Positions 19,541-60,975 are shown, numbered from the stretch's first letter. The stretch is 64,000 nucleotides of DNA from GCF_988243305.1 NZ_OZ547136.1; one strand, 5' to 3'. Translations and numbers: made by a program. The notes: generated by a model not told the origin, from the letters alone.

Positions 19541-20182
19541 TTATTCAAAGAACTGACTTATTTTCGCTTTCAATATATCGATGGCGATGCGGTTTTTCCC
19601 GCCGCGCGGCACGATAATGTCCGCATATTGTTTAGAAGGCTCAATGAATTGCAGGAACATCGGACGCACGGTTTTTTGATATTGCGCCATCACTGAATCC
19701 ATTGAACGCCCACGCTCGTTAACGTCACGCTTGATGCGGCGCATCAGGCAGATATCCAGCGGGGTATCAACGAAAATTGAGAAGTTAAGTTCATCACGCA
19801 AACGCGCATCCGTTAGCAGCAAAATGCCTTCGAGAATGATGACTTTCTTCGGCTCAACCGTCACCGTTTCTTTCATACGCGTATGTTCAACATAGCTGTA
19901 AACCGGCAGGTCAATTGCCGAGCCGCGTTTCAACGCTTGTAAATGCTCAAGCAGCAGGCTGTGATCCATCGCGCTGGGATGGTCGTAGTTGGTCTTAACG
20001 CGTTCTTCCATCGACAGATGGCTTTGATCTTTGTAATAGCAGTCTTCGGGAATTACGCCGATGTGTTCATCACCGACTTGCTCACGTAATTCACGATAAA
20101 GGGTACTGGCAATAAGACTCTTGCCGGAAGCCGATGCGCCAGCGATACCGATAATGACGCACTGATGAGACTGATCAGTCAT
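19541..20182 (-). CDS. udk: Uridine/cytidine kinase
   Basis: ORF track gives 234 aa; I start at [26 protein letters not shown] (213 aa, ATG 20180-20182), with Walker A GASASGKS. Confidence 0.92.
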
Positions 20183-20499
20183 ATATTTAGCGACCTGATT
20201 AACCTGGATGTTAGGAAGGGGGCGACGAAGCGCCAAACGCGGCAATTATAGGGATTTCATCCGCCTGATACCAGTCGAATAGCGTTGCCGCGCGCTCAGA
20301 GTTAATTGTTGACAAAGAATTCCCGGTGGCAAATTACGTTGATCAGTTTTATACAAGGTAAAAAATGTTATACGCCGTTGCGCAAATTATCCGCCTTTAC
20401 GTCACTTTATGAGCAATTCGCATATAAAATGTAAAACTTTTGTACTAGCATAAACACAGAAACGAATACTGGCGACCTGGTCTTGCGGATAAAGCGGTA

Positions 20500-23400
20500 A
20501 TGAGCAAACAATCACAGCATGTATTAATTGCCCTGCCCCACCCGCTGCTTCACCTGGTCAGTTTAGGTTTAGTCTCGTTTATCTTTACCCTTTTCTCGCT
20601 TGAGCTTTCGCAGTTTGGCACCCAACTCGCCCCACTGTGGTTCCCGACGTCCATCATGATGGTGGCGTTTTATCGCCATGCCGGGCGTATGTGGCCGGGG
20701 ATTGCGCTGAGCTGCTCACTGGGAAATATCGCCGCATCCATCCTGCTTTTTTCCACCAGCTCGCTGAACATGACCTGGACGACCATCAATATTGTTGAAG
20801 CCGTGGTCGGGGCAGTGCTACTGCGTAAATTGCTGCCGTGGTATAACCCATTGCAAAATCTGGCTGACTGGCTGCGTCTGGCACTCGGCAGCGCCATTGT
20901 TCCGCCTCTGTTGGGGGGTGTTCTGGTTATCCTGCTGACGCCCGGAGACGATCCTCTCAGGGCATTTTTGATATGGGTACTGTCAGAATCCATCGGCGCA
21001 CTGGCACTGGTGCCACTGGGATTGTTATTTAAACCACACTATCTGCTGCGCCATCGCAACCCAAGGTTGCTTTTTGAGTCGCTGCTCACGTTAGCCATCA
21101 CACTGACGTTAAGCTGGCTTTCGATGCTGTATCTGCCGTGGCCTTTTACTTTCATTATTGTGCTGTTGATGTGGAGCGCCGTGCGCCTGCCACGAATGGA
21201 AGCCTTTTTGATCTTCCTTACCACGGTGATGATGGTGTCACTGATGATGGCCGCGGATCCCTCCCTGCTTGCTACGCCGCGTACATACCTGATGAGCCAT
21301 ATGCCGTGGCTACCGTTTTTGCTGATCCTGCTGCCCGCCAACATCATGACCATGGTGATGTATGCCTTTCGTGCGGAACGCAAACACATTTCCGAAAGCG
21401 AAACCCGCTTTCGGAACGCGATGGAATATTCCGCTATCGGTATGGCGTTAGTGGGCACCGAGGGACAATGGCTGCAATCCAACAAAGCACTCTGCCAGTT
21501 TCTCGGTTACAGTCAGGAAGAGCTGCGCGGACTCACCTTTCAGCAACTGACCTGGCCGGAGGATCTCAATAAAGATCTGCAACAGGTTGAAAAGCTGATC
21601 AGCGGTGAAATAAACACCTATTCAATGGAAAAACGCTACTACAACCGCAATGGCGATGTTGTCTGGGCGTTGCTTGCCGTCTCACTGGTGCGCCACACGG
21701 ATGGCACGCCGCTCTATTTTATCGCTCAGATTGAAGACATTAACGAGCTAAAACGCACCGAACAGGTGAATCAGCAACTGATGGAGCGCATCACGCTGGC
21801 TAACGAAGCGGGCGGGATTGGCATCTGGGAGTGGGAGCTTAAGCCGAATATTTTTAGCTGGGATAAGCGGATGTTCGAGCTGTATGAAATTCCTCCGCAT
21901 ATCAAACCGAACTGGCAGGTGTGGTACGAGTGCGTGCTGCCGGAAGATCGCCAGCATGCCGAAAAAGTGATTCGTGATTCGTTGCAATCACGCTCTCCCT
22001 TTAAACTGGAATTTCGCATTACCGTGAAAGACGGCATTCGCCATATCCGCGCCCTCGCTAACCGGGTACTGAATAAAGAAGGCGAAGTCGAACGCCTGCT
22101 CGGCATTAATATGGATATGACCGAGGTAAAACAGCTTAACGAGGCATTGTTTCAGGAAAAAGAGCGCCTGCACATTACGCTGGATTCCATCGGCGAAGCC
22201 GTGGTCTGTATTGATATGGCAATGAAAATTACCTTTATGAATCCGGTGGCGGAGAAGATGAGCGGCTGGACGCAGGAAGAAGCGTTAGGTGTTCCACTCC
22301 TGACGGTGTTGCATATTACTTTTGGCGACAACGGACCATTAATGGAGAACATTTACAGTGCCGACACCTCACGTTCCGCGATTGAACAAGATGTGGTGTT
22401 GCACTGCCGAAGCGGCGGCAGCTACGACGTGCATTACAGTATTACGCCGTTAAGTACTCTGGACGGCAGCAATATTGGTTCGGTTCTGGTGATTCAGGAC
22501 GTCACCGAATCGCGCAAAATGCTGCGCCAGCTGAGCTACAGCGCCTCCCATGATGCACTGACGCATCTCGCCAATCGCGCCAGTTTTGAGAAGCAACTAC
22601 GCATCCTGCTGCAAACGGTAAACAGTACACATCAGCGACATGCACTGGTGTTTATCGATCTTGATCGCTTTAAAGCGGTGAATGACAGCGCCGGGCACGC
22701 CGCTGGCGACGCTTTACTGCGCGAACTGGCGTCATTGATGCTGAGTATGCTGCGCTCCAGCGACGTGCTGGCGCGACTCGGTGGCGATGAATTTGGTCTG
22801 CTGCTGCCAGATTGTAATGTCGAAAGTGCGCGTTTTATCGCTACACGCATTATCAGCGCCGTGAATGACTATCACTTTATCTGGGAAGGACGTGTACATC
22901 GGGTAGGTGCCAGTGCCGGGATTACCTTGATTGATGACAACAATCATCAGGCGGCTGAAGTGATGTCGCAGGCTGATATCGCCTGTTATGCCTCCAAAAA
23001 TGGTGGCCGGGGCCGGGTGACGATTTACGAACCGCAGCAAGCTGCCGCACATAGCGAACGGGCGGCGATGTCGCTTGATGAACAGTGGCGGATGATTAAA
23101 GAGAATCAGTTGATGATGATCGCCCACGGTGTCGCTTCGCCGCGGATCCCGCAAGCGCGTAATTTGTGGCTGATTTCACTTAAGCTCTGGAGTTGCGAAG
23201 GCGAGATTATTGATGAACAAACATTTCGTCGTAGCTTCAGCGATCCGGCACTTAGCCATGCTCTTGACCGACGGGTATTCCACGATTTTTTCCAGCAGGC
23301 CGCCAAAGCGGTTGCCAGTAAAGGTATAAGCATCGCCCTCCCGCTTTCCGTTGCCGGTTTGAGTAGCGCCACGCTGGTGAATGAACTAATTGAGCAGCTG

Positions 23401-23817
23401 GAAAATAGCCCTCTACCACCACGGTTATTACATCTGATTATTCCGGCAGACGCGATTTTAGATCACGCAGAAAGCGTGCAAAAACTGCGGCTGGCGGGAT
23501 GTCGGATCGTATTCAGTCAGGTGGGCCGCGATCTGCAAATCTTCAACTCGCTGAAAGCGAATATGGCAGATTACCTGCTACTTGATGGTGAGTTATGCGC
23601 CAACGTGCAGGGAAATTTGATGGATGAGATGCTGATTACGATCATTCAGGGGCACGCTCAGCGGCTCGGGATGAAGACCATCGCCGGGCCAGTAGTTTTA
23701 CCCCTGGTGATGGATACGCTTTCTGGCATCGGCGTCGATCTGATTTATGGCGATGTGATTGCCGATGCCCAACCGCTGGATTTGCTGGTGAATAGCAGTT
23801 ATTTCGCGATTAACTGA
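20500..23817 (+). CDS. dgcE: Multidomain diguanylate cyclase DgcE (YegE): N-terminal MASE1 membrane domain, PAS repeats, GGDEF and degenerate EAL domains
   Basis: 1105-aa ORF with a hydrophobic N-terminus, PAS-like segments, a GGDEF motif (ARLGGDEFGLLL) and a C-terminal EAL-like region. Confidence 0.88.
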   Translation: MSKQSQHVLIALPHPLLHLVSLGLVSFIFTLFSLELSQFGTQLAPLWFPTSIMMVAFYRHAGRMWPGIALSCSLGNIAASILLFSTSSLNMTWTTINIVEAVVGAVLLRKLLPWYNPLQNLADWLRLALGSAIVPPLLGGVLVILLTPGDDPLRAFLIWVLSESIGALALVPLGLLFKPHYLLRHRNPRLLFESLLTLAITLTLSWLSMLYLPWPFTFIIVLLMWSAVRLPRMEAFLIFLTTVMMVSLMMAADPSLLATPRTYLMSHMPWLPFLLILLPANIMTMVMYAFRAERKHISESETRFRNAMEYSAIGMALVGTEGQWLQSNKALCQFLGYSQEELRGLTFQQLTWPEDLNKDLQQVEKLISGEINTYSMEKRYYNRNGDVVWALLAVSLVRHTDGTPLYFIAQIEDINELKRTEQVNQQLMERITLANEAGGIGIWEWELKPNIFSWDKRMFELYEIPPHIKPNWQVWYECVLPEDRQHAEKVIRDSLQSRSPFKLEFRITVKDGIRHIRALANRVLNKEGEVERLLGINMDMTEVKQLNEALFQEKERLHITLDSIGEAVVCIDMAMKITFMNPVAEKMSGWTQEEALGVPLLTVLHITFGDNGPLMENIYSADTSRSAIEQDVVLHCRSGGSYDVHYSITPLSTLDGSNIGSVLVIQDVTESRKMLRQLSYSASHDALTHLANRASFEKQLRILLQTVNSTHQRHALVFIDLDRFKAVNDSAGHAAGDALLRELASLMLSMLRSSDVLARLGGDEFGLLLPDCNVESARFIATRIISAVNDYHFIWEGRVHRVGASAGITLIDDNNHQAAEVMSQADIACYASKNGGRGRVTIYEPQQAAAHSERAAMSLDEQWRMIKENQLMMIAHGVASPRIPQARNLWLISLKLWSCEGEIIDEQTFRRSFSDPALSHALDRRVFHDFFQQAAKAVASKGISIALPLSVAGLSSATLVNELIEQLENSPLPPRLLHLIIPADAILDHAESVQKLRLAGCRIVFSQVGRDLQIFNSLKANMADYLLLDGELCANVQGNLMDEMLITIIQGHAQRLGMKTIAGPVVLPLVMDTLSGIGVDLIYGDVIADAQPLDLLVNSSYFAIN

Positions 23818-23833
23818 GGCGTGCTTCCCCATC

Positions 23834-23858
23834 GCCTGATGCGGCGTATCAGGCCTAC
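23834..23858. repeat. REP element between dgcE and alkA
   Basis: gcctgatgcggcgtatcaggcctac palindrome immediately after the dgcE stop. Confidence 0.65.
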
Positions 23859-24712
23859 AATTCGTCCGTTCCGTCTGGTTGCCAGCCTTCCGTATACCAG
23901 ATATGCAACAGCGCATAAGAACGCCAGGGCTTCCAGCGTTCGGCATAACGGCGGATTTGTGCCGGTGTCATTCCCGGAAATCGCTGTTTAATCAGATAAT
24001 CATCCGGCAGGAAAACATCTTTCGCCTGCCAGCCACGTAAGGCGAAATAATTCGCCGTCCAGCGCCCGATACCCGGAAAAGTTTGCAGCGTTTTCATCGC
24101 TTGCTCTACGTCGCCCGGAAATGTCATTGGTAAGGTGCCCTCCAGCGCCGCATTTGCCAGATGAATCAGTGCCTCTGCCCGTTTCAACGGCATACCTAAC
24201 GCTTTTAATGCCTGCGGGTCGGCTGCAGCCAGCCGCTGAGGCGTGGGGAAGCAGACATAATCCGGAAAATCATCCAGCCGTTCGCCATAAAGCTGTGCCA
24301 CTCTGGCGGTCAATTTTGCCGCCATCGCCACGCTCACCAGTTGGCCTAAAATCGCCCGCACGCCCTGCTCAAAAGCATCAACACTGCCGGGTAAACGCAA
24401 TCCGGGCCGCGCCGCGCCTAACTTGCCCAACGCACCGTTAACAATCTGCGGGTTACATTGCAGATCAAACAGGCGGCTCATTTTCGCCAGACACTCTGCG
24501 GCAACAGGTTCTAAACCTGCACTTAAATTTATGTGCAGAGTATGGCGGGCTATATCCGGAATAGCAGTCACCACGCCGCGATATTCGCCCACCGCCAGAC
24601 TACGGGCATAATAATCGTCAGCGACCGTTTCCACACCGTTCACCGCACGGGCGGCGAGAAATCCCAACATCCACGACCAGTCATACGGCGGCTGCCAGTT
24701 CAGGGTATACAT
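23855..24712 (-). CDS. alkA: DNA-3-methyladenine glycosylase II
   Basis: 285-aa ORF MYTLNWQPPYDWSWMLGFLAARAV, a canonical AlkA N-terminus; helix-hairpin-helix glycosylase fold. Confidence 0.9.
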   Translation of the reverse strand: MYTLNWQPPYDWSWMLGFLAARAVNGVETVADDYYARSLAVGEYRGVVTAIPDIARHTLHINLSAGLEPVAAECLAKMSRLFDLQCNPQIVNGALGKLGAARPGLRLPGSVDAFEQGVRAILGQLVSVAMAAKLTARVAQLYGERLDDFPDYVCFPTPQRLAAADPQALKALGMPLKRAEALIHLANAALEGTLPMTFPGDVEQAMKTLQTFPGIGRWTANYFALRGWQAKDVFLPDDYLIKQRFPGMTPAQIRRYAERWKPWRSYALLHIWYTEGWQPDGTDEL

Positions 24713-54094: not shown

Positions 54095-54350
54095 TACTAT
54101 GCTCCCGTAAATTCCGATTGGATATCGGCTATGGATTGTCCTGGCCCGCCTTTTGCGGGCAATCATAATCCTGGTCGTTACAGGCGAGTTTTTCCATCTT
54201 TTGGATGTTTTTTCAGCGTTTTCTGTTGGCTCGATTCATCAGAAAAAATGTTACCGCGGTCAAGTTTTCACCGCAAAGGTATTTAAAAGGTATTATTAAA
54301 TGGTATTGTCATCGCGTACCTTACATTACCTGTCATGAAGGAATTAAAAG

Positions 54351-55628
54351 ATGAAAACAACAGCAAAGCTGTCGTTCATGATGTTTGTTGAATGGTTTAT
54401 CTGGGGCGCGTGGTTTGTGCCATTGTGGTTGTGGTTAAGTAAAAGCGGTTTTAGTGCCGGAGAAATTGGCTGGTCGTATGCCTGTACCGCCATTTCGGCG
54501 ATCCTGTCGCCAATTCTGGTTGGCTCCATCACTGACCGCTTTTTCTCGGCGCAGAAAGTGCTGGCGGTATTGATGTTCGCTGGCGCGGTACTGATGTATT
54601 TCGCTGCGCAACAGACCACTTTTGCCGGGTTCTTCCCGTTACTGCTGGCCTACTCGCTAACCTATATGCCGACCATTGCGCTGACTAACAGTATCGCTTT
54701 TGCCAACGTGCCGGATGTGGAGCGTGATTTCCCACGCATTCGTGTGATGGGCACTATCGGCTGGATTGCCTCCGGTCTGGCATGTGGATTTTTGCCGCAA
54801 ATGCTGGGTTATGCCGATATCTCTCCGACTAACATCCCGCTGCTGATTACCGCCGGAAGTTCTGCTCTGCTCGGTGTGTTTGCGTTTTTCCTGCCCGACA
54901 CGCCGCCAAAAAGCACCGGCAAAATGGACATTAAAGTCATGCTCGGCCTGGATGCGCTGATCCTGCTGCGCGATAAAAACTTCCTCGTCTTTTTCTTCTG
55001 TTCATTTCTGTTTGCGATGCCACTGGCGTTCTATTACATCTTTGCCAACGGTTATCTGACCGAAGTTGGCATGAAAAACGCCACCGGCTGGATGACGCTC
55101 GGCCAGTTCTCTGAAATCTTCTTTATGCTGGCATTGCCGTTTTTTACCAAACGCTTTGGTATCAAAAAGGTATTATTGCTTGGTCTGGTCACCGCTGCGA
55201 TCCGCTATGGCTTCTTTATTTACGGTAGTGCGGATGAATATTTCACCTACGCGTTACTGTTCCTCGGTATTTTGCTTCACGGCGTAAGTTACGATTTTTA
55301 CTACGTTACCGCTTACATCTATGTCGATAAAAAAGCCCCCGTGCATATGCGTACCGCCGCGCAGGGGCTGATCACGCTCTGCTGCCAGGGCTTCGGCAGT
55401 TTGCTCGGCTATCGTCTTGGCGGTGTGATGATGGAAAAGATGTTCGCTTATCAGGAACCGGTAAACGGGCTGACCTTCAACTGGGCCGGGATGTGGACTT
55501 TTGGCGCGGTGATGATTGCCATTATCGCCGTGCTGTTCATGATTTTTTTCCGCGAATCCGACAACGAAATTACGGCTATCAAGGTCGATGATCGCGATAT
55601 TGCGTTGACACAAGGGGAAGTTAAATGA
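54351..55628 (+). CDS. yegT: Nucleoside:H+ symporter-family MFS transporter YegT
   Basis: 425-aa hydrophobic ORF MKTTAKLSFMMFVEWFIWGAWFVPLWLWL, resembling the NupG/XapB family. Confidence 0.85.
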   Translation: MKTTAKLSFMMFVEWFIWGAWFVPLWLWLSKSGFSAGEIGWSYACTAISAILSPILVGSITDRFFSAQKVLAVLMFAGAVLMYFAAQQTTFAGFFPLLLAYSLTYMPTIALTNSIAFANVPDVERDFPRIRVMGTIGWIASGLACGFLPQMLGYADISPTNIPLLITAGSSALLGVFAFFLPDTPPKSTGKMDIKVMLGLDALILLRDKNFLVFFFCSFLFAMPLAFYYIFANGYLTEVGMKNATGWMTLGQFSEIFFMLALPFFTKRFGIKKVLLLGLVTAAIRYGFFIYGSADEYFTYALLFLGILLHGVSYDFYYVTAYIYVDKKAPVHMRTAAQGLITLCCQGFGSLLGYRLGGVMMEKMFAYQEPVNGLTFNWAGMWTFGAVMIAIIAVLFMIFFRESDNEITAIKVDDRDIALTQGEVK

Positions 55629-56629
55629 AAACAGAACGTATTCTCGGTGCTCTTTACGGGCAGGCGTTAGGGGATGCGATGGGGATGCCCTCCGAGCTTT
55701 GGCCACGCAGCCGCGTTAAAGCACACTTTGGCTGGATTGACCGTTTTCTGCCTGGACCAAAGGAGAATAACGCGGCCTGTTATTTTAACCGCGCCGAATT
55801 CACCGACGATACCTCGATGGCGCTGTGTCTGGCGGATGCGTTGCTGGAACGTGAAGGCAAGATCGATCCGGATCTGATTGGGCGTAATATTCTCGACTGG
55901 GCGCTACGTTTCGACGCCTTCAACAAAAACGTGCTAGGTCCGACCTCGAAGATTGCGCTTAACGCCATTCGCGACGGTAAACCCGTTGCTGAACTGGAAA
56001 ACAACGGCGTGACCAACGGCGCAGCGATGCGCGTCTCGCCATTAGGTTGTTTGCTTCCGGCGCGCGATGTTGATTCCTTTATTGATGATGTGGCGCTGGC
56101 GTCCAGCCCGACCCATAAATCCGATCTGGCGGTTGCAGGTGCGGTAGTCATCGCGTGGGCAATTTCTCGTGCCATTGACGGAGAAAGCTGGTCAGCGATT
56201 GTTGATTCTCTACCCTCGATTGCGCGACATGCACAGCAAAAACGCATCACCACCTTCAACGCCTCACTGGCGGCGCGGCTGGAGATTGCGCTGAAAATTG
56301 TGCGCAATGCCGACGGCACCGAATCCGCCAGCGAACAGCTTTACCAGGTCGTTGGCGCAGGTACCAGCACTATTGAGTCCGTTCCGTGCGCCATTGCGCT
56401 GGTTGAACTGGCTCAAACCGACCCGAACCGTTGCGCCGTCCTGTGCGCTAACCTTGGCGGCGACACAGACACCATCGGTGCTATGGCAACAGCAATTTGC
56501 GGCGCGTTGCATGGCGTTAAAGCAATCGATCCTGCGTTAAAGACGGAACTGGATGCGGTAAATCAGCTTGATTTCAACCGCTATGCCACAGCGCTGGCGA
56601 AATATCGTCAACAACGGGAGGCGGTATGA
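55625..56629 (+). CDS. yegU: ADP-ribosylglycohydrolase-family protein YegU
   Basis: 334-aa ORF MKTERILGALYGQALGDAMGMP, the typical DraG/ARH family N-terminus; overlaps the yegT stop by 4 nt. Confidence 0.85.
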   Translation: MKTERILGALYGQALGDAMGMPSELWPRSRVKAHFGWIDRFLPGPKENNAACYFNRAEFTDDTSMALCLADALLEREGKIDPDLIGRNILDWALRFDAFNKNVLGPTSKIALNAIRDGKPVAELENNGVTNGAAMRVSPLGCLLPARDVDSFIDDVALASSPTHKSDLAVAGAVVIAWAISRAIDGESWSAIVDSLPSIARHAQQKRITTFNASLAARLEIALKIVRNADGTESASEQLYQVVGAGTSTIESVPCAIALVELAQTDPNRCAVLCANLGGDTDTIGAMATAICGALHGVKAIDPALKTELDAVNQLDFNRYATALAKYRQQREAV

Positions 56630-57591
56630 GCGGCGCTCGATTACACACGCTGCTGCCTGAATTAACCACGCGTCAGTCGGTGATGGTCGTCGGCGCGGCG
56701 GTCATTGACGTGATCGCCGACGCTTATGCCCTCCCCTGGCGTGGGTGCGATATCGAACTGAAACAGCAGAGCGTTAACGTTGGCGGCTGCGCACTGAATA
56801 TTGCCGTGGCGTTAAAGCGCCTCGGCATCGAAGCGGGTAATGCCCTGCCGCTCGGTCAGGGCGTGTGGGCGGAGATTATTCGCAACCGGATGGCGAAAGA
56901 GGGGTTAATCAGCCTGATCGATAACGCTGAAGGCGATAACGGCTGGTGTCTGGCGCTGGTTGAGCCGGATGGCGAACGCACTTTTATGTCATTCAGTGGT
57001 GTGGAAAATCAGTGGAATCGCGAATGGCTGGCGCGATTAACCGTTGCGCCTGGCAGCCTGCTCTATTTTTCCGGTTATCAACTGGCCTCGCCCTGCGGCG
57101 AATTGTTAGTGGAATGGCTGGAAGAGCTGCAAGACGTGACGCCGTTTATCGATTTTGGCCCACGTATTGGTGATATCCCGGATGCATTACTTGCGCGGAT
57201 CATGGCCTGTCGACCTGTCGTATCACTCAATCGTCAAGAGGCTGAGATTGCCGCCGAACGTTTTGCTTTATCCGCAGAGATAACAACGCTTGGCAAGCAA
57301 TGGCAGGAAAAATTTGCCGCGTCGTTGATCGTTCGTCTCGATAAAGAAGGTGCCTGGTATTTCAGCGACAACACGTCAGGCTGCGCTCCCGCATTTCCAA
57401 CGCAAGTTGTAGACACCATTGGCGCAGGTGATAGCCACGCAGGTGGCGTACTTGCCGGGCTGGCCTCCGGTCTGCCACTGGCGGATGCCGTATTACTGGG
57501 CAATGCAGTGGCATCGTGGGTTGTCGGACATCGGGGCGGTGATTGCGCGCCGACGCGCGAGGAACTACTCCTCACACACAAAAACGTATAG
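56626..57591 (+). CDS. yegV: PfkB-family carbohydrate/nucleoside kinase YegV
   Basis: 321-aa ORF with the PfkB C-terminal motif DTIGAGDSHAGG; overlaps the yegU stop by 4 nt. Confidence 0.85.
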   Translation: MSGARLHTLLPELTTRQSVMVVGAAVIDVIADAYALPWRGCDIELKQQSVNVGGCALNIAVALKRLGIEAGNALPLGQGVWAEIIRNRMAKEGLISLIDNAEGDNGWCLALVEPDGERTFMSFSGVENQWNREWLARLTVAPGSLLYFSGYQLASPCGELLVEWLEELQDVTPFIDFGPRIGDIPDALLARIMACRPVVSLNRQEAEIAAERFALSAEITTLGKQWQEKFAASLIVRLDKEGAWYFSDNTSGCAPAFPTQVVDTIGAGDSHAGGVLAGLASGLPLADAVLLGNAVASWVVGHRGGDCAPTREELLLTHKNV

Positions 57592-58311
57592 ATCGCTACG
57601 ACAGTGGCTGATGCTGTACTCAATAGGCCGTTGCTGTTGGTCAAGTGCCACTTGCTTGATCACCAGCACCGGTATTTTGCTATCTAACTGAATATGTGAC
57701 TGAAACTCAGCATCCGGCATTCGGGCGCTAACACGGGAACGGGTACGCTTTGGAAAAATATGCTGACTGCGAAAGTAGTCATAGAGAGAAATACCGATGG
57801 CATCAACATCATGAATTAAATGCGCCGGAACCCACGATTCCTCAATGGATACCGCGTCTTCATCGACATAGCGAATACGCTTAAGCAAAAAGACATCACT
57901 GCCCGCTTCGACCGCCAGTTGCTGCGCCACCTCTTCAGGGCATTTAACCACTCGCTTGTTAACCCACAGCGTATCGGGCTTTTTCCCGCGCAACACCACC
58001 TGTTGAGAAAAACCTCGCGCTTCTTTCAACGAGTATTCAAAGATGTTGTTGATCTGCGTGCCGTAACCACGCGAACGTGTCACCACGCCCTCTTCTTCCA
58101 GCGCCTGCATCGCCTTGCGCACCGTAATACGCGAAACGCCGGTTAACTGACTTAAATCACGCTCGCCGGGTAAAATATTGCCATGTTCCAGCACCCCGCT
58201 GCGCACGGCATTTTTTACCGTTTCGGCAAACTTAATATAAAGCGGCGTGTTGTCCGCCGCTAAAATACGTTCATTCAGTTGAGCAATAAGCTGGGTATGC
58301 GCTTGTTCCAT
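57565..58311 (-). CDS. yegW: GntR/HutC-family transcriptional regulator YegW
   Basis: 248-aa ORF with an N-terminal GntR HTH (LPGERDLSQLTGVSRITVRKAMQALEEEGVV) and a UTRA-like C-terminal domain. Confidence 0.85.
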   Translation of the reverse strand: MEQAHTQLIAQLNERILAADNTPLYIKFAETVKNAVRSGVLEHGNILPGERDLSQLTGVSRITVRKAMQALEEEGVVTRSRGYGTQINNIFEYSLKEARGFSQQVVLRGKKPDTLWVNKRVVKCPEEVAQQLAVEAGSDVFLLKRIRYVDEDAVSIEESWVPAHLIHDVDAIGISLYDYFRSQHIFPKRTRSRVSARMPDAEFQSHIQLDSKIPVLVIKQVALDQQQRPIEYSISHCRSDLYVFVCEE

Positions 58312-58362
58312 TTGTCTTTTTCCAGGCGATGAGTCTGGAGGAAGTATATCACTGCTGGTTAT

Positions 58363-59181
58363 TTAAGGCGTTTCTTTAATGTCATCAACGAAAGCCTGCA
58401 ATTCCTCCACCTTGCCATTAAACACATTAAAATCCACCGGACCATTAATGCCATCTACCTGTCCACGGTCGGAATGCTGCCAGAAGTGCCAGGCCATTCC
58501 GTCATTGTCCGGACGACGTTGATAATAGTGCGCCACCCACCACGGATACTCATTGAAATACCCCGCCAGATTCGTGTGATAAAACACGGCTCCGGAGTAA
58601 ATAATCGGCTTTTTTCCCGTGCTTTTTTCGACCATTTTTAGCCACTGACTTACCCGCTTGCGTAATTCTTTTGCCGATAATTTTCCTCGCTCTTCTACGT
58701 CCAGCACGGCAGGGAAATCGCCGTGGGCAAAATCCACCGTTTGCAGAAATAATCTGGCCTGAACTGAAGCGGATACCGACGGGGAAAAATAATGATACGC
58801 CCCGCGCAGCAGGCCATTTTCGCGGCTTAGTTGCCAGTTACGCGAAAAATAGGGGTCCACCAGCTTTTCGCCTTCCGTCGCCTTAATAAAGGCAAATTGT
58901 AAGCGAATACCGTTATCGCGCATTTTTGCCACCCGCTGCCAGTCGATCCGTTCCTGCCAGCGCGAAACATCTATTCCGTGAATGGTGTAACTGGCAGGAA
59001 TGCGAATAGCGAAAGATTTAACCGGGCGATAACCGTAGAAGTGGATGTAGTCTTTAATCTGAATTGCTGTCGAATAGAAAAAATTCACCGTCTGACGCGG
59101 ATGAATCGCAACGATGGAAATTAGCCCAAGAGAGCATAATAAAGCGGTGAATTTTTTTCGACTGGTGATTCTAAGCTGCAT
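58363..59181 (-). CDS. yegX: Glycoside hydrolase family 25 (lysozyme-like) protein YegX
   Basis: Start placed at MQLRITSRKKFTALLCSLGLISIV (272 aa); an ATG three codons upstream (59188-59190) is an alternative. GH25-like DVSRWQ motif after the signal/anchor sequence. Confidence 0.8.
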   Translation of the reverse strand: MQLRITSRKKFTALLCSLGLISIVAIHPRQTVNFFYSTAIQIKDYIHFYGYRPVKSFAIRIPASYTIHGIDVSRWQERIDWQRVAKMRDNGIRLQFAFIKATEGEKLVDPYFSRNWQLSRENGLLRGAYHYFSPSVSASVQARLFLQTVDFAHGDFPAVLDVEERGKLSAKELRKRVSQWLKMVEKSTGKKPIIYSGAVFYHTNLAGYFNEYPWWVAHYYQRRPDNDGMAWHFWQHSDRGQVDGINGPVDFNVFNGKVEELQAFVDDIKETP

Positions 59182-59245
59182 TGGTTTCATCCCTGAATGT
59201 CAGCGCCAAAGACTGACAATAACCAAAGCAGCTATAGTAAGGTGC

Positions 59246-60046
59246 TCACCACCACGCGTGGAAGTGGTGAACCGGACCAATACCGTGACCAACTTCCAGC
59301 GTGTCGGCCTGGGCTAACGCCGATGAAAGCCAGCTTTTTGCCTCCTGTACGGTGTCAGCCCAGTTTGTATGGCGCGGGCGTAGTGCAGCCAACGCCGCAG
59401 AGAGTGTACAACCAGTGCCGTGGGTGTTTTTGGTCATAATGCGCGGTGCGGTAAACCGTTGTTCACCCTCGCGGGTAAACAGCCAGTCCGGGCTTTGCTC
59501 ATCATCCAGATGACCACCTTTCATTAGCACTGCGCCACAGCCCATCGCCAACAGCGATCGCCCTTGTTCCAGCATTTCCTGTTCGGTGCGCGCGTGTGGC
59601 GCGTCGAGCAAGGCGGCAGCTTCGGGCAAGTTTGGCGTTATTAATGAAACCTGTGGCAATAATCGACTGCGCAGCGTAGCAACCGCCGAAGGTGAAAGCA
59701 GCGGGTCGCCGCTTTTTGCCAGCATAACGGTGTCGAGTACCACGTTTTGGATCTGATAACGTTGCAACCTTTCTGCCACCGCTTCAACAATATCGGTTTC
59801 CGCCAACATACCGATTTTAGTGGTGTCGATTCGCACATCGCTGAACACCGAATCGAGCTGGGCGGCGACAAAATCAGGCTCAATGCGATACACCGACTGT
59901 ACGCCACGGGTATTTTGCGCCACCAGTGCAGTAATCACTGAGCAACCATAAGCGCCAAGTGCCGAGAAGGTTTTAAGATCGGCCTGAATCCCCGCACCAC
60001 CACTCGGATCAGTACCGGCAATCGTCAGAGCGTTAATTCGTTTCAT
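59246..60046 (-). CDS. thiD: Hydroxymethylpyrimidine/phosphomethylpyrimidine kinase
   Basis: 266-aa [37 protein letters not shown], a canonical ThiD N-terminus. Confidence 0.93.
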
Positions 60047-60831
60047 GCCTGCACCTCCTGCGTCAATTGCCAGAGCGCATCAAGGAAATGTGGAACAAAA
60101 CTGCCTGGCCCCTCGCTTCTGGCGGCTGCGCGTTCTCCGGCTTGTTTCATCCAGTGACAGGCAGATGCGACATTTTCCAGCATATCGCCTGGTAACGCAC
60201 AACAGGCAGCGACAACCGCCGATAATGCACAGCCAGTTCCTACCACTTTGGTCATTAACGGATCGCCACCGTGAATACCAATGATACGATGTCCATCGGT
60301 AACATAATCCATCTCGCCAGTGACCACGACGATTGCGCCAGTTTCCCGTGCCAGTGTTTGTGCAGCGGGTATCGCGTTAGCTGCGGCGTCAGTGGTATCC
60401 ACTCCCCGTCCACCATTAGCAACGCCAGCTAATGCCATGATTTCCGAAGCATTACCACGTATGGCGGTTGGCTTATGAGACAGAAGTTCCAGACAAAAAC
60501 GGCGGCGATAATCGAGTGCACCCACCGCTACTGGATCAAGCATCCAGGGTGTTTGAGAGCGTTTTGCCTGTTCAACGGCGGCACGCATCGCCTGTGCGCG
60601 TGGCTGCGTCAGTGTGCCAACGTTAATCAGCAACGCACTGGCGATAGCCGCAAACTGACTGGCCTCTTCGGTTTCGATGACCATTGCTGGCGATGCACCG
60701 AGCGCCAGTAAGGTATTGGCAGTAAAGGTTTGCACCACATCGTTGGTCATGCAGTGCACAAGAGGGGAATGTTGGTGAAAAAGGTGTAACGCGTGCGCAG
60801 ATTGCGCGGAACTCAGCAGGTCGACTTGCAT
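60043..60831 (-). CDS. thiM: Hydroxyethylthiazole kinase
   Basis: 262-aa [39 protein letters not shown]; 4-nt overlap with thiD. Confidence 0.93.
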
Positions 60832-60975
60832 AGTTTGCTCCTGCCATAACGTGAAGAAGCAATGACCTGGTGGTCCGTGACTTCCCTACGCTGGCATTAT
60901 CCAGATCAGGTGATACGGGTATTTCTCAGCCTTCACGCAGAAGGGCACCCCGAGTCGTTTGATTGCGATGATAAA
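60832..60975 (-). promoter_or_regulatory. TPP (thi-box) riboswitch in the thiM 5' leader
   Basis: Reverse complement of ~60878-60955 reads GACTCGGGGTGCCCTTCTGCGTGAAGGCTGAGAAATACCCGTATCACCTGATCTGGATAATGCCAGCGTAGGGAAGTC, containing the conserved CTGAGA and thi-box core and lying directly upstream of thiM. Confidence 0.9.

Follow-up and report, generated by a model that had tools for sequence, protein, structure and literature searches.

Which compound is taken up and converted by the products of the yegTUV operon? The question was addressed on a stretch of 64,000 nucleotides (nt) of Escherichia coli DNA (GCF_988243305.1 NZ_OZ547136.1), here called the window, in which positions are counted from the first letter. 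It carries the known E. coli operon yegTUV together with the gene of its repressor YegW, also named GgaR, a locus already published along with its regulation. Published experiments have shown that GgaR represses the operon, that its three genes share one mRNA and that the transporter YegT gave no binding of canonical nucleosides. The present analysis adds the conservation of the hydrolase YegU and the kinase YegV as a pair, their fusions, the exchange of the transporter beside them, their catalytic residues and an operator motif. With slightly more confidence than doubt, we read yegTUV as a module, inducible by its substrate, for the salvage or catabolism of a small ribosylated molecule of a non-canonical kind.

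When 1.84 billion representative proteins were searched, 1,719 relatives of YegU emerged at E<=1e-10. For 84 loci carrying a YegU relative of 39-99% identity, the neighbouring open reading frames (ORFs) were clustered. These loci came from Gammaproteobacteria, Betaproteobacteria, Firmicutes, Coriobacteriia and Actinobacteria, presenting Enterobacterales, Vibrio, Aeromonas, Chromobacterium, Bacillales, Lactobacillales, Lachnospiraceae, other Clostridia, Dialister, Sutterella/Parasutterella, Coriobacteriia and Leifsonia. A YegV-like PfkB kinase was a neighbour of the YegU homologue in 74/84 loci and a YegW-like GntR/UTRA regulator in 63/84. Transporters of the YegT type (NHS) were present in 40/84 loci, NCS1 transporters in 19/84 and PnuC-family transporters in 14/84; the PnuC-type neighbour (PF04973) scored 150 bits against a cut-off of 42 for the PnuC equivalog of NCBIfam. 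Additional look-ups revealed further loci in which ECF transporters flank the YegU-YegV pair or fusion. Fusions of ADP_ribosyl_GH and PfkB domains, in both domain orders, were observed in 9 of 10 long YegU relatives scanned. Another long relative, P0161 (692 amino acids), is not such a fusion and contains two tandem ADP_ribosyl_GH domains. No further enzyme was consistently found beside the YegU homologue among the 84 loci. Across phyla the hydrolase-kinase pair is constant, while the transporter is exchanged between the NHS, NCS1, PnuC and ECF types. An earlier note on this DNA had proposed that the three proteins form one unit to import, cleave and phosphorylate a ribosylated or nucleoside-like compound, and the adjacency in 74 of the 84 loci together with the fusions supports this proposal. 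A stripped-down variant of the module occurs in Edwardsiella and Serratia (L044, L046, L047, L057), where a YegU homologue of 61-65% identity lies beside a YegW-like regulator and near phoPQ-like and purB/hflD genes, without an adjacent kinase or transporter.

The gene yegU (55625-56629, plus strand) encodes a protein of 334 amino acids that is, by homology, a metal-dependent ribosyl hydrolase of the ARH fold (ADP-ribosylglycohydrolase family; PF03747, ADP_ribosyl_GH, 1e-66, 225.7 bits versus a cut-off of 26.2). Among solved structures the uncharacterised MJ1187 (1T5J) is nearest, with ARH3 and DraG next, and the scores stay below the subfamily cut-offs of DraG (TIGR02662, 79.7 versus 337) and Tri1 (NF041672, 69.8 versus 490). 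Among 79 distinct homologues the residues D17, E24, T60-D61-D62, N131, G132, M135, R136 and T163-H164 are invariant or nearly so, as are G279-D280-T-D282-T283, with T281 present in 78. Of these, E24, T60-D61-D62, D280, D282 and T283 do not vary in any of the 79. The T60-D61-D62 and GGDTDT motifs and E24 align to T76-D77-D78, GGDTDT and the essential Glu41 of ARH3. Because the conserved residues coincide with the metal ligands and Glu41 of ARH3, YegU should be catalytically active. The adenine clamp of ARH3, F143/Y149, corresponds to E123/V129 in YegU, and the family has E/Q/A/P and V/L/I at these positions; this replacement argues against an ADP-ribose recognition of the ARH3 kind. The motif N102-x-L-G-P-[TS]-S-K109 (window positions ~55928-55951) is near-invariant in the 79 family members and absent from ARH3, and the loop 102-109 is a candidate element for phosphate or substrate recognition.

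The kinase gene yegV (56626-57591, plus strand) codes for 321 amino acids of the PfkB/ribokinase family (PF00294, 5e-56, 190.6 bits). All catalytic motifs of PfkB enzymes are present: the GG dipeptide, NxxE and the DTxGAGD anion hole with the catalytic aspartate. Within 71 homologues D28, G53-G54, N58, N202...E205 and D263-T-I-G-A-G-D269 are invariant or nearly so. The best full-length matches of YegV are ribokinases (PDB/NCBIfam 4e-15 and 2e-13, TIGR02152 8e-23). However, all 17 of 17 NCBIfam matches lie far below their cut-offs, ribokinase at the top with 81 versus 300 bits. Judged by these scores, YegV fits no PfkB subfamily of known substrate, neither ribokinase, KdgK and 1-PFK nor nucleoside kinase. 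A close relationship to the aminoimidazole riboside (AIRs) kinase STM4066 of Salmonella was considered and rejected, as YegV had no PDB match to it at E<=1e-5.

The first gene, yegT (54351-55628, plus strand), encodes a homologue of the nucleoside:H+ symporters of the NHS family with 425 amino acids (PF03825, Nuc_H_symport, 6e-183, 608.7 bits versus 25.9; TIGR00889, 651 bits versus 446). It matches PDB entry 8ZOJ at 5e-281, the crystal structure of YegT itself (Xiao et al. 2025, PMC11979927), of which the earlier note had made no mention. The GxxxD motif was located at G311-V-S-Y-D315, residues 311-315, and D315, a protonatable aspartate in transmembrane helix 10, is described as the protonation site (PMC11979927). 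Isothermal titration calorimetry on purified YegT gave no significant signal for uridine, adenosine, cytidine or guanosine; several uridine-contact residues of NupG are not conserved in YegT, and its cavity residues differ from those of NupG (PMC11979927).

The regulator gene yegW (57565-58311, minus strand) encodes a GntR/HutC-type repressor of 248 amino acids with an N-terminal winged helix-turn-helix (PF00392, GntR, 59 bits) and a C-terminal UTRA domain (PF07702, 122 bits). Saito et al. (2024, PMC10819704) renamed it GgaR and found a single genomic target by chromatin immunoprecipitation on microarrays (ChIP-chip). The earlier note was unaware of YegW as GgaR, a repressor of yegTUV alone with ADP-glucose as its proposed effector (PMC10819704). 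GgaR represses one 3.3-kb yegTUV mRNA about 30-fold, and in electrophoretic mobility shift assays (EMSA) it bound the fbaB/yegT spacer and, more weakly, a region inside yegT, nt 571-869 (PMC10819704). No operator motif was defined in that study (PMC10819704). A consensus scan predicted a sigma-70 promoter at 54267-54296 (plus strand; TTCACC, an 18-nt spacer, TATTAT), 55 nt 5' of the yegT ATG and with the -10 hexamer TATTAT at 54291-54296; the scan as such was not enriched, with 5 sites found versus 4.7 expected, and the terminator scan likewise performed no better than on shuffled sequences, so that both serve as pointers only. The predicted GgaR operator, AAAGGTATTtAAAAGGTATTattaaatGGTATTgtcatcgcGTACC (54275-54320, plus strand), consists of three direct GGTAT repeats, spaced by 11 and 13 bp, and after them a GTACC in inverted orientation. 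It overlaps the predicted -10 hexamer and falls inside the 190-bp EMSA probe-2 that GgaR bound (PMC10819704). The motif is kept 5' of yegT in Enterobacteriaceae, Budvicia, Providencia, Pectobacterium and Vibrio.

The sequence AAGGTATT is present in 6 copies in the window versus 1.5 expected, two of them in the promoter operator and one at 55167 in yegT. A candidate secondary intragenic site, GGTATCAAAAAGGTATTATT, was located at 55158-55176 (plus strand, yegT nt 808-826), within EMSA probe-5 (nt 571-869), to which GgaR bound more weakly (PMC10819704), and the 13-mer AAAAGGTATTATT is common to the promoter operator and nt 814-826 of yegT. The intragenic double GGTAT is retained by roughly half of the enterobacterial orthologues; wherever the peptide over this site, RFGIKKVLLLG, was located, it does not vary, except that one orthologue has VLMLG. 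Other palindromes were observed in the loci of Firmicutes, ACTTATTATAATAAGT in Lachnospiraceae and AACTCATACGTATGAGTT in Bacillales. The Vibrio loci (L037-L039) have one GGTAT repeat inverted, TGGTAT-N11-ATACCA, and carry an additional MFS transporter (PF07690) between yegV and a co-directional yegW. Relative to the published work on GgaR, the predicted GGTAT-repeat operator is a small detail that is new and can be tested.

How might these proteins act together? YegT would import the compound with a proton, and YegV, a kinase of the ribokinase fold, would phosphorylate the imported riboside, most likely at the 5'-OH of the ribose, and so trap it in the cell. The two-metal ARH site of YegU with its conserved glutamate would then hydrolyse the bond at C1 of the ribose, yielding ribose-5-phosphate and the aglycone. 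GgaR would repress the operon through the GGTAT repeats over the -10 hexamer and be freed by a phosphorylated ligand. The order of the enzymes, the 5'-OH as site of phosphorylation and the identity of the substrate are what we infer. By analogy, the sequence riboside, riboside 5'-phosphate, ribose-5-phosphate plus aglycone is favoured, because facilitators of the PnuC type need a cytosolic kinase to trap their substrate (PnuC/NadR), because E. coli already has the ribokinase RbsK, and because HutC-type regulators usually sense phosphorylated pathway intermediates (NagR, TreR, DasR).

Judging by the neighbouring genes, the substrate is probably a small riboside that belongs with vitamins or cofactor precursors. 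In Leuconostoc holzapfelii, a regulator of the NrtR family (NUDIX + NrtR_WHD), an MFS transporter, NadC (277 bits versus a cut-off of 198), YegU, an NCS1 transporter and YegV are encoded in one direction. The arrangement nrtR-niaP is a known pattern of the nicotinamide adenine dinucleotide (NAD) regulon in related lactic acid bacteria (PMC2330246). One metagenomic locus combines NCS1 and an isochorismatase-family hydrolase with an ARH/PfkB fusion; the isochorismatase-family neighbour had weak partial matches to several cysteine hydrolases and no clear assignment to PncA. In other loci a DeoD-like purine nucleoside phosphorylase, or DeoB and DeoC, adjoin the module. The leading candidate, put forward tentatively and with a good deal of doubt, is a pyridine riboside of the nicotinamide or nicotinate type, maybe an unusual anomer or derivative.

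Several points weigh against a riboside module and against this candidate. ARH1 and ARH3 act specifically on alpha-1'' linkages, whereas the usual nucleosides and nicotinamide riboside have the beta configuration, and this speaks against a simple beta-riboside. Should YegU keep the alpha geometry of ARH1 and ARH3, its substrate would be an alpha-riboside, a caveat for beta-nucleosides and beta-nicotinamide riboside; other alpha-linked ribosides are further candidates. The NAD-related neighbours each come from single loci, and riboswitches (NAD+, cobalamin, thiamine pyrophosphate (TPP) and others) were not detected beside the module in 18 non-enterobacterial loci. In the literature we found no paper that assigns a substrate to YegT, YegU or YegV, and YegV was still treated as uncharacterised in a paper of 2025, in agreement with the view of the earlier note that the substrate is not established. 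The ribokinase matches of YegV are equally compatible with cleavage preceding phosphorylation, and the sole reported ligand of GgaR, ADP-glucose (10-100 uM, EMSA; PMC10819704), is no riboside of the kind envisaged here. A broader claim, which we hold somewhat less probable than its opposite, is that YegU would be the first ARH-fold enzyme with a small-molecule riboside or ribotide as physiological substrate, in place of an ADP-ribosylated macromolecule, and that together with YegV it would define a pathway, widespread among gut bacteria, for a riboside that is alpha-linked or non-canonical in another way. Such a riboside might be a nicotinamide or nicotinate riboside of an unusual form, 2'-O-alpha-ribosyl-adenosine released when poly(ADP-ribose) (PAR) or tRNA is broken down, or the alpha-riboside of a cobamide lower ligand. 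Nucleosidase activity of the nicotinamide mononucleotide (NMN) type is an orphan activity that YegU might supply.

The reverse order of the two enzymes has to be considered with the same set of genes: YegU would split the imported riboside into aglycone and free ribose, and YegV would be a dedicated ribokinase, an order resembling the uriR-rbsK2-uriT-uriH type of operon in Corynebacterium. The best full-length matches of YegV fit this order, as do its conserved ribose-diol aspartate D28, GG motif and catalytic aspartate, and the ARH-PfkB fusions suit either sequence of steps. However, YegV is far under the equivalog cut-off of ribokinase, and the three arguments given above for phosphorylation as the initial step, the presence of RbsK, the requirement of PnuC-type facilitators for a kinase acting on the imported molecule and the phosphorylated intermediates mostly sensed by HutC-type regulators, make a hydrolase acting before the kinase rather unlikely, although this order is a serious rival. 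A third role for YegU, that of a true de-ADP-ribosylase of proteins or nucleic acids as in DraG, Tri1 or ARH3, with an incidental linkage to yegT and yegV, would agree with its membership in PF03747, its complete metal and catalytic site and the weak matches to the DraG and Tri1 models. We regard it as very improbable: these scores are far below the cut-offs (DraG 80 versus 337, Tri1 70 versus 490), the adenine-stacking residues of ARH3 are not conserved, no ADP-ribosyltransferase was seen as a neighbour, and the gene is linked or fused to a PfkB kinase and linked to small-molecule transporters across phyla. Assays of YegU for the removal of ADP-ribose from ADP-ribosyl-protein or PAR linkages were not reported in the literature found.

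The published model connects the operon to glycogen: GgaR senses ADP-glucose, and YegT, YegU and YegV import it, make it or act on it, raising glycogen. Release of GgaR from the fbaB/yegT probe was observed with 10-100 uM ADP-glucose and not with glucose or ADP, the three compounds compared; deletion of ggaR raised yegTUV mRNA about 30-fold and glycogen 2- to 3-fold, the latter together with poor growth, and a yegV deletion is listed among the low-glycogen mutants of a screen (PMC10819704). However, the effector panel of three compounds did not comprise ADP-ribose, NMN or riboside phosphates, and an activity of YegT, YegU or YegV on ADP-glucose is not among the published results. The rise in glycogen accompanied by poor growth could be an indirect consequence of a transporter and two enzymes overexpressed 30-fold, as we infer. 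Elsewhere the pair is accompanied by PnuC, NCS1 and ECF transporters, families known to handle small vitamins, bases and ribosides and not nucleotide sugars, and glg genes were not found as neighbours in the loci examined. A role in ADP-glucose metabolism therefore appears improbable to us, and the salvage or catabolism of a non-canonical riboside, with phosphorylation preceding cleavage, is retained as the preferred reading.

The five ORFs of the locus and the Pfam labels of the earlier note were borne out by the ORF listing and by Pfam. ATGA start/stop overlaps are present at both junctions, yegT/yegU and yegU/yegV, so the junction sequences agree with the 4-nt overlaps it had reported; purine-rich stretches resembling Shine-Dalgarno sequences lie directly 5' of yegU (GGGGAA) and yegV (GGGAGG). 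Such ATGA overlaps are frequent in bacterial operons and by themselves weak evidence. Co-transcription of the three genes had been demonstrated by Northern blot as a single 3.3-kb mRNA (PMC10819704). The arrangement yegT-yegU-yegV is kept in other Enterobacteriaceae, as is the overlap of the 3' ends of yegV and yegW by 27 nt in convergent orientation. The text of the earlier note had described this overlap correctly, whereas its title called the regulator divergent. ExcludonFinder counted the yegV-yegW pair among the E. coli excludons, i.e., convergent overlapping transcription units (PMC12288877). All five genes are annotated by RefSeq under the same names in 5,421 of 5,426 complete E. coli genomes. 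On one side gatY and fbaB border the locus; thiD, thiM with its TPP riboswitch, rcnR and rcnA lie on the other, and this riboswitch was the sole Rfam match in the window.

The fifth gene, yegX (58363-59181, minus strand), encodes a protein that resembles GH25 muramidases and has a hydrophobic segment at its N-terminus (PF01183, Glyco_hydro_25, 5e-54, 183.8 bits; N-terminal GxDxS motif as GIDVS at residue 72, catalytic DxE motif as LDVEE at 163). Its longest ORF extends over 58363-59190, but RefSeq starts the gene at the second ATG, 59181, which is also where the earlier note ends the locus. The earlier note had included yegX in the module. It was a neighbour of the YegU homologue in only 3/84 loci, all E. 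coli, and BLASTP and TBLASTN did not find it in E. albertii, Citrobacter, Enterobacter or the other loci; yegW directly abuts thiD in Citrobacter, Enterobacter, Kluyvera and others. Thus yegX is an E. coli-specific insertion outside the conserved module. The genes thiM, thiD, yegX and yegW are arranged head-to-tail on the minus strand (57565-60962) with gaps of 55 nt (thiD-yegX) and 51 nt (yegX-yegW), and terminator-like sites were not detected between them; elsewhere in Enterobacteriaceae thiD lies about 41 nt from yegW. Read-through from a TPP-riboswitch-controlled thiMD unit into yegW is possible because of the short gaps, the lack of a detected terminator-like site and the abutment of thiD and yegW elsewhere. 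The adjacency of thiD and thiM was rejected as a functional clue, the synteny being restricted to Enterobacteriaceae.

The 3' half of yegV and all of yegW (57000-58500) showed at most 93.8% identity to each of 5,424 complete E. coli genomes; a comparison part of the window, 20000-24000, had 99.9% identity to E. coli strains. The differences are mainly synonymous (35 synonymous versus 3 non-synonymous codons in yegW), the ORFs are all intact, and the divergent Escherichia representatives L010 and L011 are no nearer to this allele. The region is probably a rare divergent allele recombined from an unsampled Escherichia lineage. This allele is what distinguishes the window from the published yegTUV-GgaR locus of E. 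coli K-12 (PMC10819704; YegT structure PMC11979927), which has the same genes, order, overlaps and flanks (fbaB, thiD-thiM). An operator motif and a cross-phylum context, absent from the work on K-12, are supplied here.

The operon is conserved in E. coli, and its regulator and the structure of its transporter are known, but its chemistry is not. In the gut, the hydrolase-kinase pair is widely distributed among Firmicutes, Sutterella and Dialister, and an analogous operon of Salmonella aids gut persistence in pigs. The identity of the substrate would give a function to three y-genes of E. coli, extend the ARH family to small-molecule metabolism and might uncover a compound exchanged in the gut, be it a nutrient or a cofactor precursor. 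The genomic context narrows the list of candidates, and the proposed order of steps is directly testable in vitro. Fold, TDDT and GGDTDT metal motifs and the catalytic glutamate (Glu41 in ARH3, E24 in YegU) are common to YegU and ARH3, ARH1, DraG and Tri1. In contrast to ARH3, YegU lacks the aromatic adenine clamp F143/Y149 and has the family-specific 102-109 motif, and unlike these enzymes it is found in operons or fused with a kinase and transporters and is not paired with an ADP-ribosyltransferase.

In Salmonella, the operon STM4065-STM4066-STM4067 likewise combines a transporter, a PfkB kinase and an ARH-family protein. STM4066 (PDB 1TYY) is an aminoimidazole riboside kinase and accepts a riboside; STM4067 is a putative ADP-ribosylglycohydrolase, and the physiological substrate is unknown, as for yegTUV. 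An STM4067 mutant was attenuated in the pig gut (PMC3161100). The absence of STM4066 from the PDB matches of YegV at the threshold given above places the two kinases in different PfkB subfamilies. Since a separate yegU orthologue (84% identity) is present in Salmonella as well, STM4065-STM4067 is analogous or paralogous, not orthologous, to yegTUV. The salvage of nicotinamide riboside by PnuC-NadR similarly joins a facilitator to a cytosolic kinase, and a PnuC-equivalog transporter accompanies the yegUV-type pair in 14 loci. There the kinase belongs to PfkB and not to the RNK domain of NadR, a hydrolase is added, and the control is by an inducible HutC-type repressor instead of the NAD-sensing NadR, NiaR or NrtR, the Leuconostoc locus being the one exception. 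In the catabolism of pseudouridine, the PfkB kinase YeiC (PsuK) makes the 5'-phosphate, from which the metal-dependent glycosidase YeiN (PsuG) releases ribose-5-phosphate and the base. YeiN has an IndA-like fold and cleaves a C-C glycosidic bond, whereas YegU has the ARH fold; the logic of this pathway is the same as that of the order proposed for yegTUV, a kinase followed by a hydrolase.

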